The notes beneath the pieces are model-generated. The model was not told the DNA's origin. It did no database searches and saw only the letters and a list, made by a program, of their open reading frames with translations. A stretch of 64,000 bases of DNA, from the NCBI GenBank assembly GCA_946631995.1, contig CAMPAQ010000017.1:16306-80305 (forward strand), in the 5' to 3' direction. Shown piece after piece: positions 3,933 to 33,836 of the stretch. Numbering within the stretch: the stretch's first letter is position 1; every line of letters begins with the position of its first letter. The translations under genes were made by a program, and so were the position numbers. The DNA comes from an uncultured Bacteroidales bacterium. GTDB taxonomy: Bacteria > Bacteroidota > Bacteroidia > Bacteroidales > UBA3663.

Positions 3933-3940
3933 TATCTTTG
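3933..3940 (+). promoter_or_regulatory. Bacteroidetes sigma-A -7 box (TATCTTTG) upstream of structured element copy 1 / OmpA-family gene
   Basis: Exact match to the TAnnTTTG consensus, about 100 nt upstream of the element. Confidence 0.45.
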
Positions 3941-4018
3941 CAACCGATTTATTCATCAATCAAAACCAAATCGCCTATGAAGAAATAAAAAATTGTTGAA
4001 TTAAAAAACATATAATAA

Positions 4019-4195
4019 TATAGCATCCACTTGAATTTTGTCTCCTGAAAATTCGCCAAAATCTAACGGGACAACCTAAAAGTAAAAGCTCGGATGCTCA
4101 CGCTACGGCGTGGGCTTTTACTCGTATAGGTTGTTAGGTGTTTGGCGATACCTCAGGAGACAATGACGGATAAAATGCCCACGTTTTTGTATTTT
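4019..4195 (+). ncRNA. conserved structured RNA element, copy 1, in the 5' leader of the OmpA-family gene
   Basis: Nested stems: GTCTCCTGA (4040-4048) pairs with TCAGGAGAC (4153-4161); TTCGCCAAA pairs with TTTGGCGA; ACAACCTA pairs with TAGGTTGT; GTAAAAGC pairs with GCTTTTAC. The core GGATGCTCACGCT...GGCGTGGGC is identical in copy 2. Flanked by the conserved boxes ATAGCATCC (5') and CCACGTTTTT (3'). Confidence 0.5.
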
Positions 4196-4252: not shown

Positions 4253-5434
4253 ATGAAATTCAAAAACTTAATTCTGACAATGGCCGCGGTCATCACAAGC
4301 CTGAATGCAACGCTGGCCAATACGTCGAACAACGACAATGAAGAACTGCAAGCCTTCTCTTGGGCAGAACTGCAGGCAGGAGCGCAAATAACTCCGACAA
4401 ACGCAAGCAACGGCAAACTCTTCACTCCGGTATGCGCCATTTCCATCGGCCGATTCTTCTACCCTCAAATCGGAGGACGCATACACATCTCCGGACTAAA
4501 GGCCAAAGGCGGATTTGATCCTCTCGGCCAATATTACAAGTGGAACTTCCTGACATCGGACATTGACTTAATGGTCAACGTAACAGGCATCGTCAACGGC
4601 CGCAACGACAACATTCTGAACCTCATCGCCATCGCAGGCCTTGGCTTGACTGCATCATGGAACAACGACGAACTTCTCGAACTTGACAAGAATTACAAGA
4701 TACTTGGTAACAGCATGATGTGGAAAGACAACCACAAAGGGCGCAACCTTCGGCTCGGCATACGGCTCGAAACTGACCACACTCGGACATTCGGAGCTTC
4801 AGTAGAATTCACGGCCAACAACACCGACGACCGCTTCAACTCCAAATATGCGAATTCAAGCGACTGGATGCTGACCGGAATGTTGGGCGTGAGCTACCGC
4901 TTCGGCCGCAAATTCCGCAAGACAAACGGCGAAGCCACGGCCGACGGCACCGACCTCATCGAACGCATAGAACAAACGACACCCGAAGAACCGACCGCAT
5001 CAGTCGTCGAAGAAACGCCTTCGGCCGAAAAAGAGGTCGAAAAACAGCCAACGACGCGCACCATCGAACGGAGAATCAAAGTCACCTTGCACGAAGAGCA
5101 TTTCTATGCATACCGCGAGGTGGACAACGCAAGCGACGATGCTCAGATGCGCCGCATTGCCGACTTCCTGACCAAACACCCGGAAGCAACAATTTCTGTG
5201 ACTGGCTACGCCGACAAAGAGACAGGTACGGCTGCGGCCAATGCCCGATTCGCACGACAACGTGCCGAAATCTTCAAACGAAAACTGGTTGACGGATTCA
5301 ATGCAGACGGAAACCGCATCACAGTCGTTTCAAAGGGTGACACCGTCCAGCCATTTCCACAAAACGATCGCAACCGATGCGTAATCGTCGAAGGCAAGGC
5401 AGAGGAAACAATCATCGAAACCATCACAGAATAA
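4253..5434 (+). CDS. OmpA-family outer membrane protein (N-terminal beta-barrel region plus C-terminal OmpA-like peptidoglycan-binding domain)
   Basis: ORF 4142..5434 trimmed to MKFKNLILTMAAVITSLNATLA signal peptide. C-terminal ISVTGYADKETGTAAANARFARQRAEIFKRKLVDGF matches the OmpA_C-like domain. Confidence 0.75.
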   Translation: MKFKNLILTMAAVITSLNATLANTSNNDNEELQAFSWAELQAGAQITPTNASNGKLFTPVCAISIGRFFYPQIGGRIHISGLKAKGGFDPLGQYYKWNFLTSDIDLMVNVTGIVNGRNDNILNLIAIAGLGLTASWNNDELLELDKNYKILGNSMMWKDNHKGRNLRLGIRLETDHTRTFGASVEFTANNTDDRFNSKYANSSDWMLTGMLGVSYRFGRKFRKTNGEATADGTDLIERIEQTTPEEPTASVVEETPSAEKEVEKQPTTRTIERRIKVTLHEEHFYAYREVDNASDDAQMRRIADFLTKHPEATISVTGYADKETGTAAANARFARQRAEIFKRKLVDGFNADGNRITVVSKGDTVQPFPQNDRNRCVIVEGKAEETIIETITE

Positions 5435-5730: not shown

Positions 5731-6294
5731 ATGAAAGAGTATTCACTCGCTGGCACCAAGCGTGCCGAAAATGGCAAGAAGGCTGCCAAGCAGCTTCGCG
5801 CTCAGGGTCTCATTCCATGCAACCTCATCACCAAGGAGGGCGCACAGTCATTCACCGTCAAGGCTGCTGACATCCGCAACCTCATCTACACCTCACAGGT
5901 TTTCGCTGTGAAGCTGAACATCGAGGGCGCCGAGTGTCTGGCCATTGTCAAGGAGGCTCAGTTCGCTCCAGTCAACGAAGAGATCCTTCACCTGGATTTC
6001 CAGAAGTTCGAGGCCAATGAGGCTATCTCGGTTGCCATCCCAGTTAAGCTGGAGGGCTTCGCCGAGGGTGTCAAGGCCGGTGGTAAGCTGGTTAAGCAGG
6101 TTCGTAGCCTGACCGTCAAGGGTCGCTACACTGACATCCCAGAGCGTCTCATCGTCGATGTAACCTCAATCGAGTTGGGCAAGACTCTCAACGTCGCTTC
6201 TCTGAAGTATGACAACCTCGAGATCCTGACCGCTCCTTCGGTAATCGTCGCTGCTGTCAAGGCTACCCGCGCTTCTCGTCAGAACAACGCCTGA
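5731..6294 (+). CDS. rplY: 50S ribosomal protein L25 / general stress protein Ctc
   Basis: 187 aa MKEYSLAGTKRAENGKKAAKQLRAQGLIPCNL; L25/Ctc family, with the conserved rplY-pth-hslR gene order. Confidence 0.85.
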   Translation: MKEYSLAGTKRAENGKKAAKQLRAQGLIPCNLITKEGAQSFTVKAADIRNLIYTSQVFAVKLNIEGAECLAIVKEAQFAPVNEEILHLDFQKFEANEAISVAIPVKLEGFAEGVKAGGKLVKQVRSLTVKGRYTDIPERLIVDVTSIELGKTLNVASLKYDNLEILTAPSVIVAAVKATRASRQNNA

Positions 6295-6343
6295 TGCCTT
6301 TTCACATCGGCCAACACCCGATGAAAGCAAAAGAAAAAAAACG

Positions 6344-6376
6344 TCCCCTTCCCTCCAACGGGAGGGGGATTTTTCA
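6344..6376 (+). terminator. rho-independent terminator after rplY
   Basis: CCCTTCCCTCC-AACG-GGAGGGGG stem followed by ATTTTTC. Confidence 0.6.
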
Positions 6377-6408
6377 TTGCTAAAAATTGACAAAAAATAC
6401 TCACGACA

Positions 6409-7260
6409 ATGAAAAGAGAGTTCCGTCTCGCGGCATTGGCCGCAATGATTGCCATCACCGGCTGCACAACGGGCCAGAAGGAAGAGCCATTGGCCAACGA
6501 CCCGAACACAATCACATTGGCCGACAACCGAACAACCGTCACGTGGATCAAGGACAACCAGGGCGACAAACTCATGCCCCGCGAGCTCTTTCCCGAGGCT
6601 TCGGATTCGCTCGTGCAGGCGTTGGGTGTGGCCGATGGTGTGCCTGCCTCGATGAGTGCCTACCTGATGCATTGTGATGGCCAATGGGTACTGTTCGACA
6701 CAGGACTGGGGGCCGACAAGGGCGGACAGCTGCTGAACGCACTGCAGGCAGTAGGGCTGACGCCGGACAGCATCGGCTATATCTACCTCACGCACTTCCA
6801 CGGCGACCACATCGGCGGAATGATGCAGGACGGCCAAGCGCTCTTCACTCGCGCCGAGGTCTTTGCCTGCTGCCACGAATATATGGCATGGATGATGGAA
6901 ATGCCTCTGGAGAAGACGGAGCTGCAACGGAAAGTGATGGAGGCCTACCGCGACCGCACGCACCTGTTCGAGTGGGGCGACTCGCTTCCCAACGGGATAT
7001 TGGCCATAGATGCCCCCGGACATACGCCCGGCCACACGGTCTTCCGCAAGGAGAACCTGCTCATCGTGGGGGACCTGATGCACGGCTTTGACCTGCAGCT
7101 CAACCACCGCTATATCAGCTGCAACTATGACATGGACAAGGAGCAGGCCGCCCAGTCACGCAACCACATCATCAGCATCGCCCACAACGAGCATCTGACC
7201 ATCTGCGGTATGCACCTGCCGGCACCAGCATTCTTCGAAGTCAACCCGGAGACGAAATAG
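6409..7260 (+). CDS. MBL-fold metallo-hydrolase (lipoprotein)
   Basis: Signal peptide plus Cys (AMIAITGC), THFHGDHIGG zinc-binding motif, downstream DAPGHTPGH. Confidence 0.75.
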   Translation: MKREFRLAALAAMIAITGCTTGQKEEPLANDPNTITLADNRTTVTWIKDNQGDKLMPRELFPEASDSLVQALGVADGVPASMSAYLMHCDGQWVLFDTGLGADKGGQLLNALQAVGLTPDSIGYIYLTHFHGDHIGGMMQDGQALFTRAEVFACCHEYMAWMMEMPLEKTELQRKVMEAYRDRTHLFEWGDSLPNGILAIDAPGHTPGHTVFRKENLLIVGDLMHGFDLQLNHRYISCNYDMDKEQAAQSRNHIISIAHNEHLTICGMHLPAPAFFEVNPETK

Positions 7261-7858: not shown

Positions 7859-8324
7859 AGTTCGTATTGACAAGTGGCTGTGGGCCGTGCGCATCTTCAA
7901 GACGCGCTCGATTGCGGCCGATGCCATCAAGATGGGCCGTGTCACGATAGGCGGACAGAAAGTCAAGGCGTCGCGCAACGTGAAGATTGGCGAAGTCATC
8001 GACGTGAAGAAGCCGCCCATCACCTATTCCTTTAAAGTATTGGCATTGGCCGAAAACAGAATGGGTGCCAAGATGGTGCCCGGATTTATGGAAAATGTGA
8101 CCCGTCAGGAACAGCTCGACCTGCTACAGATGAGCCGTATCTCGGGTTTCATCGACCGTGCAAAAGGTTTGGGTCGCCCGACGAAGAAGGACCGCCGCGA
8201 CATGGACGACTTCACCACGCCGGAATATGTCGATGAATTCGACTTCTCGCTTGAAGATCTGGATGACCCGGATGTATGGGCCGAGGTGACGGAGGGACTC
8301 TCCAACAAAGATTCGGAACTTTAA
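7848..8324 (+). CDS. hslR: ribosome-associated heat-shock protein Hsp15 (S4 RNA-binding domain)
   Basis: [36 protein letters not shown]4 domain; overlaps pth by 11 nt. Confidence 0.8.
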
Positions 8325-8462
8325 ACAAAAAAAGAGGGTCGTCTCACGACGACCATCTTCACTAACCTTAAATCTTATACCATGAAAAACACGATGCAAA
8401 GGTAAAACCTTTAGTACATTAATGCAAGTGTTTATCGAAAAAAATTCATAATTTCGGTCAAA

Positions 8463-27744: not shown

Positions 27745-27777
27745 TTTGACCGACTATTCCGAAAAAAGCATACATTT
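27745..27777 (+). promoter_or_regulatory. Bacteroidetes sigma-A promoter (-33 TTTG, 21-nt spacer, -7 TACATTTG) upstream of structured element copy 2
   Basis: TTTG at 27745-27748, TACATTTG at 27770-27777; about 110 nt upstream of the element. Confidence 0.5.
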
Positions 27778-27867
27778 GCAGCCGCAAGATTTTCTGCACA
27801 ACCAATTAAAACCATAAACAAAAAAACAGACAAGAAAAGAAAGATATACTTCATACATATAGATGAC

Positions 27868-28045
27868 ATAGCATCCGCTTAAAACTTGCTTTCAGAAAAT
27901 TCGCCAAAATTTAAAAAGCAACTAAGAGTAAACAGTCTGGATGCTCACGCTGTTAGGCGTGGGCTTTTACTCGTATATAGTTGCATGGTGTTTGGCGATA
28001 CCTCTGAAAGCGTAGACGAATAAATTGTCCACGTTCTTTTTTTGT
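27868..28045 (+). ncRNA. conserved structured RNA element, copy 2, in the 5' leader of the secreted-protein gene at 28153
   Basis: Same architecture as copy 1. The outer stem is GCTTTCAGA (27888-27896) pairing with TCTGAAAGC (27993-28001). It differs from copy 1 at 4 positions and every change is compensated on the partner arm. The third stem also covaries (GCAACTA with TAGTTGC). Confidence 0.5.
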
Positions 28046-30836: not shown

Positions 30837-33836
30837 ATGAAAAAGATTTCTTTGATTTTGCTTGCAGTCCTCTCACTGACGGCGTGCAAGAGGGATTCGT
30901 CCGTAGTCTATCTGAACGGCGACGACGACGACATCATCATCCGTGTAGATGACGGCATGAAGGTCAACCTGACGGTCAACTGGAGCGATCTCGCCACCGC
31001 TCCGGACGGCATGACGGTCTATCTCTACCCGACGGGCAACGACACCGTGGACAGCACCGTCCGCTCGTGGCACTTCGACAACGTGCAGTCGGCTTCGGTC
31101 ACGGTACCCGAACAGGACTATTCCGTCATCTGTTTCAACCAGTCGGAGAACGAGCTTGCCGGCTACGTGTTCGATTTCCGCGACTACGCGACCGCAACGG
31201 TGACGGCCAAGGACCTGTCGAACCTTGCGCCATTGGCCATAGCCTCGATGAGCTCGCTGCAATCGACCCGAGCCCTGAACCTGATGGGCGTGCTCAAGCC
31301 GGTGAATGTGGTCAAGACGATGTCGCTCAAGATCCACGTAGCGGGCTTCAACGAGCGCGTCGAAGTGAAGGGTACGCTGTCCAACATGCCCGCCGGCGTG
31401 ACCATGTGCGACCGCAAGCCGCTGCCCAAGCCCGTTGACCTGACACTGCCGACGAAGGACTGGACGGTCAAGGCGACATCCGACGACGAGATCGACCTGG
31501 ACATCACGTTCAATTCCTTCGGCATATTCATGGACGATGAGACCCGCGCGGCAGGCAGCGGTGACGACGACTTTGTGGCCGAAACCAGAGTCGCGCTCGA
31601 CGACAGCGACCTGCGCAACATCCTGCACCTCGAAATCACAGCCGAGGACGGCACCGTCACGAAGCTCGACTACGATGTCACCCAGGAGCTCATCCGTCAA
31701 TATCGCATAGCGATCGAGAGCGAGGCGACAAGCTCCAACTCCACACCGCAGTTTGACAACCAGTTTTTCTTCTCGTACCATGCGGCCGACACCACAGCGA
31801 CCCTGGTCAGCGGCGTGGCCATGGGCAAGGTGGAGATTCCGGAGTACGTCCAGCATGACGGCCTGTCGTACAAGGTGACGGAAATCGGGGCACAGGCTTT
31901 TCGTGGCTGCACATATATGACATCCGTTTCCATCCCCGAAAGCGTGACCCGAATACGAAGTTATGCATTTGCGGAATGCGCCGGCCTATCGTCCCTCTCA
32001 TTGCCACAGTCGCTTAGGTTCATCGGAGTAAGAGCCTTTGACCAATGCCGAACTCTGACCGAAGTCACAATTCCGGAGCAGGTGGACAGTTTAGGAGGCT
32101 ATGCATTCGGTAATTGCCAGATGCTTACGAAAGTCAATTACAACGCGCGGCATTGCAATTATGATTATGATGAAAGTGCATTCACACATATTAGTGAGGG
32201 TGACACAGGTCTGGGCGTCACGACATTGAACATCGGAAATCAGGTTGAACATATCCCTGCTTGGGTATTCTCGGAGCTCAGTAACCTGAAGACCATGACA
32301 ATCCCGAATTCAGTGACAAGCATCGGCAGTAGTGCGTTCTCTCGTTGCACTGGCCTGACAAGCGTCACGATTCCGAGCAGCGTGACCAGCATCGGCAGCA
32401 GTGCGTTCTCTCGTTGCACTGGGCTGACAAGCATCACGATTCCGAGCAGCGTGACGAGCATCGGCGACGGTGCGTTCTATGATGTCGCGAATGTTGTTTA
32501 CAACGGCTCAGCAGAGGGCGCGCCGTGGGGAGCATTCATCATAAACGGTATCGTTGAAGATGGTATTGTCTTTGACGCTGAAAAAACGCAACTTATAAAG
32601 TATTGCGGAAATGGTGGTGATGTCACTATCCCTGCGACGGTTACAAGCATCGGCGAAAGTGCGTTCTCTCGTTGCACTGGCCTGACAAGCGTCACGATTC
32701 CGAGCAGCGTGACAAGCATCGGCGACGATGCGTTCGATGGCTGCACTGGCCTGACAAGCGTCACGATTCCAAGCAGCGTGACGAGCATCGGCGACTATGC
32801 GTTCTCGGGCTGCACTGGCCTGACGAGCGTCACGATTCCGAGCAGCGTGACGAGCATCGGCGACTATGCGTTCCAGTATTGCTCTGGCCTGACAAGCGTC
32901 ACGATTCCGAGCAGCGTGACGAGCATCGGCAGAAGTGCGTTCAATGACTGCACTGGACTGACAAGCGTCACGATTCCGAGCAGCGTGACAAGCATCGACA
33001 ACTATGCGTTCTATGGCTGCACTGGCCTGACGAGCGTCACGATTCCGAGCAGCGTGACGAGCATCGGCTACAATGCGTTCTATGATGTCGCGAATGTTGT
33101 TTACAACGGCTCAGCAGATGGCGCGCCGTGGGGAGCAAACAAAATCATATCTGGAGTCGTTGATGGTGATTTTATCCTTGCTGACGAAGAAAAGACCAAA
33201 CTTACAAAGTACATCGGCAAAGGTGGAAATGTCACTATCCCTGCGACGGTGACAAGCATCGGCGACAATGCGTTCCGAGGCTGCACTGGGCTGACAAGCG
33301 TCACGATTCCGAGCAGCGTGACAAGCATCGGCAGAAGTGCGTTCAATGACTGCACTGGACTGACAAGCGTCACGATTCCGAGCAGCGTGACAAGCATCGG
33401 CGACTTTGCGTTCGACGGCTGCACTGGCTTAACAAGCGTCACGATTCCGGACGGCGTGACCAGCATCGGCAACTTTGCGTTCTCAGGCTGCACTGGCCTG
33501 ACAAGCGTCACGATTCCGGACGGCGTGACAAGCATCGGCAAATGTGCGTTCTATGGCTGCACTGGCCTGACAAGCGTCACGATTCCGGACGGCGTGACAA
33601 GCATCGGCGACGGTGCATTCTATGGCTGCACTGGCCTGACAAGCGTCACGATTCCGAGCAGCGTGACAAGCATCGGCTACCGGGCGTTCTATGGCTGCAC
33701 TGGCCTGACAAGCGTCACGATTCCGAGCAGCGTGACCAGCATCGACGACGATGCATTCTATGGGATTGACATCATTTACTACAATGGAAGTGCATCCGGT
33801 GAACCGTGGGGAGCAAACAAAATAGTTAGGCAGTAA
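30837..33836 (+). CDS. BspA-type leucine-rich-repeat (LRR_5) cell-surface lipoprotein
   Basis: Lipoprotein signal MKKISLILLAVLSLTAC. About 300-aa N-terminal domain, then more than 25 units of CTGLTSVTIPSSVTSIG(D/S/R)xAF (23 aa = 69 bp). The C-terminal cap YYNGSASGEPWGANKIVRQ has two internal near-copies. Confidence 0.85.
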   Translation: MKKISLILLAVLSLTACKRDSSVVYLNGDDDDIIIRVDDGMKVNLTVNWSDLATAPDGMTVYLYPTGNDTVDSTVRSWHFDNVQSASVTVPEQDYSVICFNQSENELAGYVFDFRDYATATVTAKDLSNLAPLAIASMSSLQSTRALNLMGVLKPVNVVKTMSLKIHVAGFNERVEVKGTLSNMPAGVTMCDRKPLPKPVDLTLPTKDWTVKATSDDEIDLDITFNSFGIFMDDETRAAGSGDDDFVAETRVALDDSDLRNILHLEITAEDGTVTKLDYDVTQELIRQYRIAIESEATSSNSTPQFDNQFFFSYHAADTTATLVSGVAMGKVEIPEYVQHDGLSYKVTEIGAQAFRGCTYMTSVSIPESVTRIRSYAFAECAGLSSLSLPQSLRFIGVRAFDQCRTLTEVTIPEQVDSLGGYAFGNCQMLTKVNYNARHCNYDYDESAFTHISEGDTGLGVTTLNIGNQVEHIPAWVFSELSNLKTMTIPNSVTSIGSSAFSRCTGLTSVTIPSSVTSIGSSAFSRCTGLTSITIPSSVTSIGDGAFYDVANVVYNGSAEGAPWGAFIINGIVEDGIVFDAEKTQLIKYCGNGGDVTIPATVTSIGESAFSRCTGLTSVTIPSSVTSIGDDAFDGCTGLTSVTIPSSVTSIGDYAFSGCTGLTSVTIPSSVTSIGDYAFQYCSGLTSVTIPSSVTSIGRSAFNDCTGLTSVTIPSSVTSIDNYAFYGCTGLTSVTIPSSVTSIGYNAFYDVANVVYNGSADGAPWGANKIISGVVDGDFILADEEKTKLTKYIGKGGNVTIPATVTSIGDNAFRGCTGLTSVTIPSSVTSIGRSAFNDCTGLTSVTIPSSVTSIGDFAFDGCTGLTSVTIPDGVTSIGNFAFSGCTGLTSVTIPDGVTSIGKCAFYGCTGLTSVTIPDGVTSIGDGAFYGCTGLTSVTIPSSVTSIGYRAFYGCTGLTSVTIPSSVTSIDDDAFYGIDIIYYNGSASGEPWGANKIVRQ
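32300..33770 (+). repeat. near-identical 69-bp tandem repeats (LRR_5 units) with higher-order ~600-bp duplication, inside the BspA-like CDS
   Basis: CTGACAAGCGTCACGATTCCGAGCAGCGTGAC(A/G)AGCATCGGC recurs at least 15 times at 69-bp spacing. TTCTATGATGTCGCGAATGTTGTTTACAACGGCTCAGCAGA(G/T)GGCGCGCCGTGGGGAGCA occurs at ~32476 and ~33078. Confidence 0.9.

Follow-up and report, generated by a model that had tools for sequence, protein, structure and literature searches.

We report a structured RNA element of about 175 nt that is present twice on the + strand of a 64,000-nt stretch of DNA, here called the window, from an uncultured Bacteroidales bacterium (assembly GCA_946631995.1, contig CAMPAQ010000017.1, positions 16,306 to 80,305), a sheep rumen metagenome scaffold. 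More than 200 sequences from rumen Prevotellaceae genomes and from rumen and human-gut metagenomes make up the family to which the two copies belong. We consider the element to be a previously undescribed structured cis-regulatory leader, distinguished by its complexity, its copy number and the regulon of surface proteins that it would serve. With moderate confidence we read it as a cis-acting transcription attenuator, riboswitch-like or factor-dependent, of Prevotella genes for surface and secreted proteins.

Copy 1 lies at 4019-4192 and copy 2 at 27867-28042. An earlier note on this DNA had called the two regions alignable, and our alignment bears this out at the positions it gave; each stem it quoted is the exact reverse complement of its partner at the listed coordinates. 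We found that a 21-mer, GGCGTGGGCTTTTACTCGTAT, is present exactly twice in the window, both times on the + strand, with 0 expected from shuffles. The nested hairpin of copy 1 has a predicted energy of -66.7 kcal/mol (z = -6.5 versus shuffled controls) and that of copy 2 -56.2 kcal/mol (z = -4.8). The outer 9-bp stem, P1, carries four differences between the copies, each compensated on the opposite arm, while a further helix, P3, reads ACAACCTA/TAGGTTGT in copy 1 and GCAACTA/TAGTTGC in copy 2, again with compensation. Both of these claims of the earlier note were reproduced.

Relatives were collected by scanning one genome per species with the pattern GGATGCT-N(10-24)-TGGGCTTTTACTCG. This returned at least 118 loci, about 109 of them true relatives, almost all in rumen Prevotellaceae metagenome-assembled genomes (MAGs) with no more than three contigs per MAG; six of the loci were chance matches within htpG-like coding sequence of proteobacteria and were dropped. 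Some of the carrier MAGs are labelled Bacteroidaceae, the GTDB family that holds Prevotella. A covariance model built from the homologues (R1; 175 positions, 43 base pairs) recovered 106 members from the genome loci, including copies that the pattern scan had overlooked, and 103 further members from metagenome contigs of rumen and, in a few cases, human gut. On the + strand of the window R1 scored copy 2 at 165.7 bits and copy 1, the lowest-scoring full-length member of the family, at 130.4 bits; the - strand reached 20 bits and the scan of the window gave no third copy. The search patterns fixed the 3' strand of helix P4 and parts of P5 and of the bulge, and the real family is probably broader than the one sampled here.

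The conserved unit runs in the order tiny open reading frame (ORF), 5' box, rod of helices P1-P5, weak hairpin with U-run, about 60 nt of spacer and a co-oriented start codon. In the nested structure 96.7% of the pairs in the genome set are standard pairs, compared with 35-46% when partners are slid, and the independent metagenome set gives 96.1%, percentages that are somewhat inflated since the family alignments were fitted to the model. Even with model-fitted alignments the spectra of pair types are unambiguous. Cells with double changes numbered 457 (genome set) and 510 (metagenome set) against 125 and 135 in shuffles, and none of 500 shuffles reached the observed value.

All pairs of P1 and of P3 show compensatory change, and as many as 4-5 pair types occur at a single pair; one P3 pair, for example, is CG in 34 sequences, AU in 26, UA in 24 and GC in 18. 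P2, which the earlier note had listed as invariant, varies across the family: in the metagenome set it covaries at six of its eight pairs, and a subset of sequences has a wholly different P2 helix, UUGGGGAA/UUAUCCCCAA. The two top pairs of P5 covary. In P4 the changes are one-sided only, with A-U becoming G·U and C-G becoming U·G. Counts of G·U against A·C pairs are 134:43 and 133:16, a 3-8 fold excess of the former, and therefore the + strand, as RNA, is the selected form. A selected + strand RNA fold had been proposed from the two copies; more than 200 homologues now retain its stems through compensatory changes, and the additional copies, in which uncompensated differences would have spoken against such a fold, are compensated.

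About 50 positions are invariant among the sampled sequences, internal loops and pseudoknot included, and this is partly an artefact of the search pattern. The pseudoknot joins the 5' box, AGC(G/A)UCC, to a complementary bulge between P4 and P5, GGAUGCU, and is paired in 99.3% of cases. We picked metagenome members with a non-G at one position of the bulge and found that all 79 unique sequences lack AGCGUCC; they carry AGCGUUA or AGCGUUU opposite a bulge of the form NAA(C/U)GCU. An extra swap, AGCGAUU with ACUCGCU, occurs at one locus (L165), and the terminal pair of the pseudoknot has U-G and U-A variants. The comparison of sequences leaves the pairing of 5' box and bulge well supported. Most members have GAAGCGUCCGCUU as the box and the window has UAGCAUCC; AGCATCC, earlier described as invariant, is replaced by AGCGTCC or AGCGTTA in most relatives. 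A further candidate helix, between UUCUUG just 5' of P1 and CAAGAG at the P3/P4 junction, is 93-97% complementary but shows almost no variation by which to judge it. Its counterpart in copy 1 (4033-4040 with 4076-4083) is altered on both sides and reads UUUUG with UAAAA.

The element is tied to the gene that follows it. A co-oriented ORF lies downstream at 156 of 164 loci, separated by a spacer with a median of 59 nt and a tight range of 45-73 nt, and only seven of the 156 spacers contain a -7 box. Upstream neighbours are of mixed orientation and lie at variable gaps. The distance to the gene is conserved and that to the promoter is not. Among 91 downstream proteins 32 are of the BspA type with leucine-rich repeats (LRR) and 11 have a dockerin; Big_2, DUF285, C10 peptidase and OmpA domains are among the others. 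A signal-peptide-like N-terminus was present in 85% of proteins encoded downstream of the leader and in 50% of those from other ORFs of the same loci; the test is crude, with a high background, and the enrichment is real. These results agree with the earlier suggestion of a leader of envelope or secreted-protein genes, the products being mostly signal-peptide-like and including BspA-type LRR and dockerin proteins. Many of the downstream genes are short and monocistronic. Cargo of the type IX secretion system was considered as a common theme and rejected, as Por_Secre_tail was found on only 7 of 140 C-termini.

Upstream of the rod, a -7 box of the form TAnnTTTG is present in about half of the family at a variable distance. 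The conserved block opens about 37 nt 5' of the 5' box with (T)GCCTATG and the tiny ORF. In 137 of the 163 members that bear the ATG (84%) a stop codon follows within three codons, compared with 16-17% in the other two frames, and 99 of these 137 short ORFs read M-X-stop. The stop is TAA in 129 cases, TAG in 22 and TGA in 10, the second codon is free, and about 10% of members have ATA in place of ATG. A two-codon reading frame thus appears to be under selection, which would be a rare case. Attenuation by a leader peptide of the trp or his type was rejected, as there are 1-3 sense codons, the second is unconserved and the ORF ends about 27 nt before the 5' box. The unit under conservation exceeds the extent first given for it: its start in copy 1 lies about 45 nt further upstream, at the GCCTATG box with its tiny ORF, and it ends with the hairpin and U-run. 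The putative roles of the 5' box in a pseudoknot and of the 3' box in a terminator, the tiny ORF and the alternative pairings go beyond the earlier description. A motif CTTAAAC(C) or TTAAAAC, sometimes repeated, recurs 10-20 nt 5' of GCCTATG and marks the edge of the conserved block.

The rod ends beside a candidate terminator with which it shares nucleotides. The distal hairpin has the form ACGU-A-GAC...GUC-C-ACGU and is followed by a U-run (mean 7.7 U in 9 nt), and the last two nucleotides of P1 are its first two. Its energy is -5.7 kcal/mol, or -2.0 kcal/mol without the two pairs shared with P1. Unlike P3, P1 is strand-biased, with pyrimidines in the 5' strand and about 90% purine in the 3' strand. 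The purine-rich 3' strand is therefore able to lengthen the distal stem by a median of five pairs that reach into the U-run. In 10 or 11 sequences, all of one clade, G-C replaces A-U in this extension. In a human-gut subfamily (L126, L141, L157 and L166) G-C pairs, GGCGUAGAC...GUCCACGCC, lengthen the distal stem and run into the P1 3' strand. An alternative fold with the P1 3' strand paired downstream costs only about 7 kcal/mol relative to the minimum-free-energy fold.

At its other strand P1 also has an alternative partner. A proximal segment just upstream of P3 is complementary to the first 5-7 nt of the P1 5' strand, and the match is particular to each member: its own segment gives -5.6 kcal/mol and segments taken from others give -3.1 kcal/mol, the own one being better in 95 of 103 sequences, while the values in a second set are -5.9 and -3.8 kcal/mol (76 of 87). 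In addition, the GGU and ACC that flank the P2 3' strand covary (UA 89, CG 10, UG 3), and their pairing looks sterically incompatible with a formed P2. Two further antiterminator candidates were picked by eye. One would pair CGUGGGCU with AGUCCACG of the terminator 3' strand, the other AGAAGCGU of the 5' box with ACGUUUUCU; their strands are nearly invariant and we do not rely on them.

In copy 1 these parts are placed as follows.
3933-3940, + strand: -7 promoter box TATCTTTG (TAnnTTTG, Bacteroidetes-type), read from the sequence, with a putative promoter function
3973-3988, + strand: GCCTATG box with the tiny ORF ATG AAG AAA TAA (3977-3988)
4019-4192, + strand: structured domain, matched by the whole covariance model (130.4 bits) and by its fold
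4022-4028, + strand: 5' box AGCATCC, pseudoknot partner of the bulge at 4092-4098 and a perfect complement of GGATGCT, with family covariation
4040-4048, + strand: P1 5' strand GTCTCCTGA, pairs with 4153-4161 (fold, family covariation)
4068-4072, + strand: GGGAC, with which the first 5 nt of the P1 5' strand can pair alternatively
4053-4060, + strand: P2 5' strand TCGCCAAA, pairs with 4141-4148 (family covariation)
4071-4078, + strand: P3 5' strand ACAACCTA, pairs with 4127-4134 (all P3 pairs covary)
4081-4089, + strand: P4 5' strand AGTAAAAGC, pairs with 4114-4122 (one-sided changes only)
4092-4098, + strand: bulge GGATGCT between P4 and P5, partner of the 5' box
4099-4112, + strand: P5 hairpin CACGC-TACG-GCGTG (two top pairs covary)
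4114-4122, + strand: P4 3' strand GCTTTTACT
4127-4134, + strand: P3 3' strand TAGGTTGT
4137-4152, + strand: GGT, P2 3' strand TTTGGCGA (4141-4148) and ACC; GGT/ACC pairing would loop out the P2 3' strand
4153-4161, + strand: P1 3' strand TCAGGAGAC
4162-4195, + strand: region homologous to the terminator, with 3' box GCCCACG and T-run retained and the stem broken (non-canonical pairs in the model alignment)
4253-5434, + strand: OmpA-family gene, 393 aa (Pfam OmpA, 1.9e-09)

Copy 2 is built as follows.
27771-27778, + strand: -7 promoter-like box TACATTTG, read from the sequence
27867-28042, + strand: structured domain, matched by the whole covariance model (165.7 bits) and by its fold
27870-27876, + strand: 5' box AGCATCC
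27888-27896, + strand: P1 5' strand GCTTTCAGA, with 28003-28011 as its partner and AAAGC (27915-27919) as the alternative one
27901-27908, + strand: P2 5' strand TCGCCAAA, pairs with 27991-27998
27918-27924, + strand: P3 5' strand GCAACTA, pairs with 27978-27984
27926-27932, + strand: P4 5' strand GAGTAAA, pairs with 27966-27972
27939-27945, + strand: bulge GGATGCT
27946-27961, + strand: P5 hairpin CACGCT-GTTA-GGCGTG, which with flanking GCT/GGC and TTTT also fits a terminator pattern
27966-27972, + strand: P4 3' strand TTTACTC, pairs with 27926-27932
27978-27984, + strand: P3 3' strand TAGTTGC, pairs with 27918-27924
27987-28002, + strand: GGT, P2 3' strand TTTGGCGA (27991-27998) and ACC (GGU/ACC family covariation)
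28003-28011, + strand: P1 3' strand TCTGAAAGC, pairs with 27888-27896
28011-28043, + strand: distal hairpin CGTAGACGA-ATAAA-TTGTCCACG and T-run TTCTTTTTTT, candidate intrinsic terminator; C28011 is common to it and P1
28153-29511, + strand: downstream gene, 452 aa, signal-peptide-like N-terminus, no Pfam match

Copy 2 is without an ATG-X-stop tiny ORF. Its downstream gene is the first of four co-oriented ORFs, the last of which encodes a BspA-type LRR protein (30837-33836). In copy 1 the GCCCACG of the 3' box is perfectly complementary to CGUGGGC of P5/P4.

We propose that each copy would form the core of a 5' leader of about 250-330 nt, a + strand transcript that would start at an ordinary Bacteroidetes promoter upstream. 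The leader would fold into the five-helix rod with its pseudoknot, followed by the weak hairpin and U-run, and the gene would start about 60 nt further on. The downstream gene would be transcribed only when polymerase reads through the hairpin and U-run, and read-through would be set by a choice between two mutually exclusive folds. In fold A, P1 would be closed and would sequester two basal nucleotides of the terminator stem, making a weaker terminator. In fold B, the P1 5' strand would be held by its proximal partner, and the P1 3' strand would complete and extend the terminator stem. The core, that is P2-P5 with the internal loops and pseudoknot, would act as the sensor, responding to a small ligand, a protein or some other factor. 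Both the direction of this switch and its trigger are predictions; the trigger, if one exists, could be a ligand, a protein or the state of translation as reported by the tiny ORF. A bolder proposal, which we put forward only tentatively, is that the family represents a new class of riboswitch or of protein- or ribosome-sensing attenuator, with several to dozens of copies per genome, that would place a regulon of BspA-LRR, dockerin and OmpA-like proteins under one global signal and would have a two-codon ORF as part of its sensor.

Several points weigh against the attenuator. The transcription start site, the 3' end and read-through are predicted from the sequence. The distal hairpin is weak and has an A·C mismatch that is conserved; a simple terminator scan passes over it and flags instead the central P5 hairpin followed by UUUU (about -15 kcal/mol), and therefore the true point of termination is uncertain. 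Copy 1 retains the whole fold yet has a broken distal stem, so that either the fold has a role of its own, apart from the hairpin, or copy 1 is in decay. A few clades may account for much of the pseudoknot covariation, which would then represent few independent events. The invariance of P4 and of much of P5 is uninformative because the search patterns fixed them, and the inflated pairing percentages belong here as well. Finally, the downstream genes have no common metabolic theme to suggest a ligand.

The terminator-like central hairpin, GCUCACGC...GCGUGGGC followed by UUUUACUC, was seen at 27943-27973 (+) and 4096-4124 (+) in the window and at 855-885 in locus L098. The pseudoknot of the 5' box would open the three bottom pairs of this hairpin, which may make it a second, internal point of attenuation or pausing.

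The attenuator could take the specific form of a small-molecule riboswitch, in which P2-P5 and the pseudoknot would be the aptamer and the hairpin with U-run the expression platform; the signal sensed would be a global one, such as a second messenger or a cue from the envelope or from nutrients. The element lies in 5' leaders of the same orientation as the gene and has a covarying fold with conserved unpaired nucleotides, as riboswitches generally do, with P4/P5 partly fixed by the pattern. The roughly 50 invariant positions, among them internal loops and pseudoknot, and a putative terminator-type platform with overlapping alternative helices fit this form, as do the multiple copies per genome before genes for surface proteins. 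c-di-GMP riboswitches likewise control adhesin genes, for example cbpA of Bacillus thuringiensis (PMC7423583). However, the downstream genes hint at no ligand, a rod with sequence-conserved helices would suit a protein site equally well, and part of the conservation comes from the search pattern. To our knowledge Bacteroidetes are not noted for c-di-GMP signalling, which also counts against this form. We regard a small-molecule riboswitch as possible and would not presume it.

The earlier note had proposed either a leader or a small RNA (sRNA), and the linkage to genes favours the leader. As an independent trans-acting sRNA gene, the element would give a transcript of about 200-300 nt from promoter to U-run, and its proximity to genes would be secondary. 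The promoter box upstream, the hairpin and U-run at the end and the multi-copy nature of the family, which recalls the paralogous FopS sRNAs, would all suit such a gene, and riboswitch-terminated leaders can also act in trans. However, a co-oriented ORF at a tight spacing follows nearly every copy, and it is the distance to this gene, rather than that to the promoter, that is conserved. Furthermore, 149 of the 156 spacers are without a promoter box, and therefore, if the element were an sRNA, the genes after it would be left with no promoter. We consider an sRNA gene unlikely.

It is also quite improbable that the element acts in processing, stability or translation with no conditional termination, as a substrate of RNase III or RNase E, a 5' stabiliser with a tiny ORF or a self-cleaving ribozyme. 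The long, largely double-stranded rod, the tiny ORF conserved near the 5' end, a degree of sequence conservation of the order found in ribozymes and the fold of copy 1, kept with no intact terminator stem, would be in keeping with such a function. Simple stabilisers, however, need neither the conserved hairpin and U-run nor competing helices, and no known ribozyme family in Rfam 15 matches. With about 60 nt between its end and the start codon, the structure also cannot mask the start site.

Least credible by far is an element that acts as DNA, be it an attC-like site of single-stranded recombination, a miniature inverted-repeat transposable element (MITE) or the end of a mobile element. Like integron attC/VCR repeats it includes an imperfect palindrome of about 130 nt with covarying arms, lies between co-oriented ORFs and sometimes occurs in tandem with its gene, and folded single-stranded DNA would tolerate the G·T bias too. 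It differs from them in having no integrase context in the window and no R'' (RYYYAAC) or R' (GTTRRRY) sites; because P1 varies freely, its arm ends being free except for a closing G-C, there are no AAC...GTT core sites at the ends of the arms. A pseudoknot and a U-run, with orientation and spacing kept constant relative to the next start codon, are features of an RNA. The window copies lie among housekeeping and other genes (Maf, aminotransferase, L25, peptidyl-tRNA hydrolase, glycosidases) with no cassette array, and we found no family matches in IMG/VR (2.9 million viral contigs) or among PLSDB plasmids. A MITE or insertion-sequence end was rejected given the fixed gene orientation and spacing and the covarying arms; inspection of upstream alignments, in place of a dedicated test or a formal search for target-site duplications, revealed no terminal inverted repeats or target duplications. 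The possibility that the copies were ends of a mobile element, which the earlier note had raised against itself, is thus answered in the negative.

We compared the proposed attenuator with known systems. With riboswitches of the terminator/antiterminator type and with PyrR- or T-box-type leaders it shares a structured leader, conserved loops, a pseudoknot, a hairpin and U-run before the gene, potentially mutually exclusive helices and several copies per genome for surface genes. It differs from them in having no Rfam match, an unusually weak putative terminator and a tiny ORF of 2-3 codons within the unit, and a Prevotella host with a BspA-LRR/dockerin regulon is new for such elements. EAR and put-type RNAs and the sites of NusG paralogues (UpxY/LoaP) are leader elements, some of them pseudoknotted, that control read-through of terminators in loci for the cell surface. 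They act processively along long operons, whereas here a single putative terminator follows directly. No NusG paralogue was noticed beside the copies, in the course of an inspection rather than a systematic search.

The earlier note could put no family name to the element, and we found no Rfam 15 match even at E <= 10, where both copies and one typical relative gave only chance-level eukaryotic and sRNA matches of 12-19 bits; the families covered include Bacteroidales-1, Bacteroides-1 and -2, 6S, lysM-Prevotella and the known riboswitches and ribozymes. The searchable literature holds no account of this leader element, and an anonymous entry in a large motif catalogue is possible. The main texts of Weinberg 2017 and Fremin 2021, as distinct from their supplementary catalogues, contain only other Prevotella motifs.

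Prevotella dominates the rumen and many human guts, and little is known of how its genes are regulated after initiation. If the proposal is true, a common leader before varied surface and secreted genes would make the cell surface a regulon under control at the level of RNA, and a ligand or protein partner, if there is one, would reveal the signal for surface change. The family also offers structural work a compact, covariation-rich RNA with five helices, a pseudoknot and competing helices, and the covariance model is able to annotate such leaders across thousands of MAGs.

The only Rfam match of the whole window at the gathering threshold is an sRNA of the FopS family, outside the copies at 8324-8392 on the - strand (RF04319, 70.1 bits, full length, with a strong terminator), flanked by an S4-domain ORF and a gene of the poly(A)-polymerase/CCA-adding type. 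FopS RNAs are about 70 nt long, have little structure beyond one terminator hairpin and work in trans with RbpB (PMC11697453). Both are multi-copy non-coding families of Bacteroidales, and FopS ends in an intrinsic terminator; in contrast, the element described here is a pseudoknotted rod of about 175 nt tied to a downstream gene. The window copies gave no match to RF04319 and no sequence similarity to FopS.

Units of leader plus gene occur in tandem, 2-3 kb apart, with three units at L182 (3973-4155, 6141-6322 and 9055-9235), two each at L141 and L049, and further cases at L029 and L082. This suggests that the unit duplicates along with its gene. Truncated or decayed copies were seen at L015:4839-4999, L072:296-446, L076:4465-4662, L136:2982-3205 and L160:14296-14465, and these have only the 5' half or are without the P1 3' strand and terminator, which makes them possible natural mutants. 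Downstream of the OmpA gene of copy 1, genes for ribosomal protein L25 and peptidyl-tRNA hydrolase lie at 5731-7100 (+), and the presence of peptidyl-tRNA hydrolase near a two-codon 'minigene' is probably coincidental.

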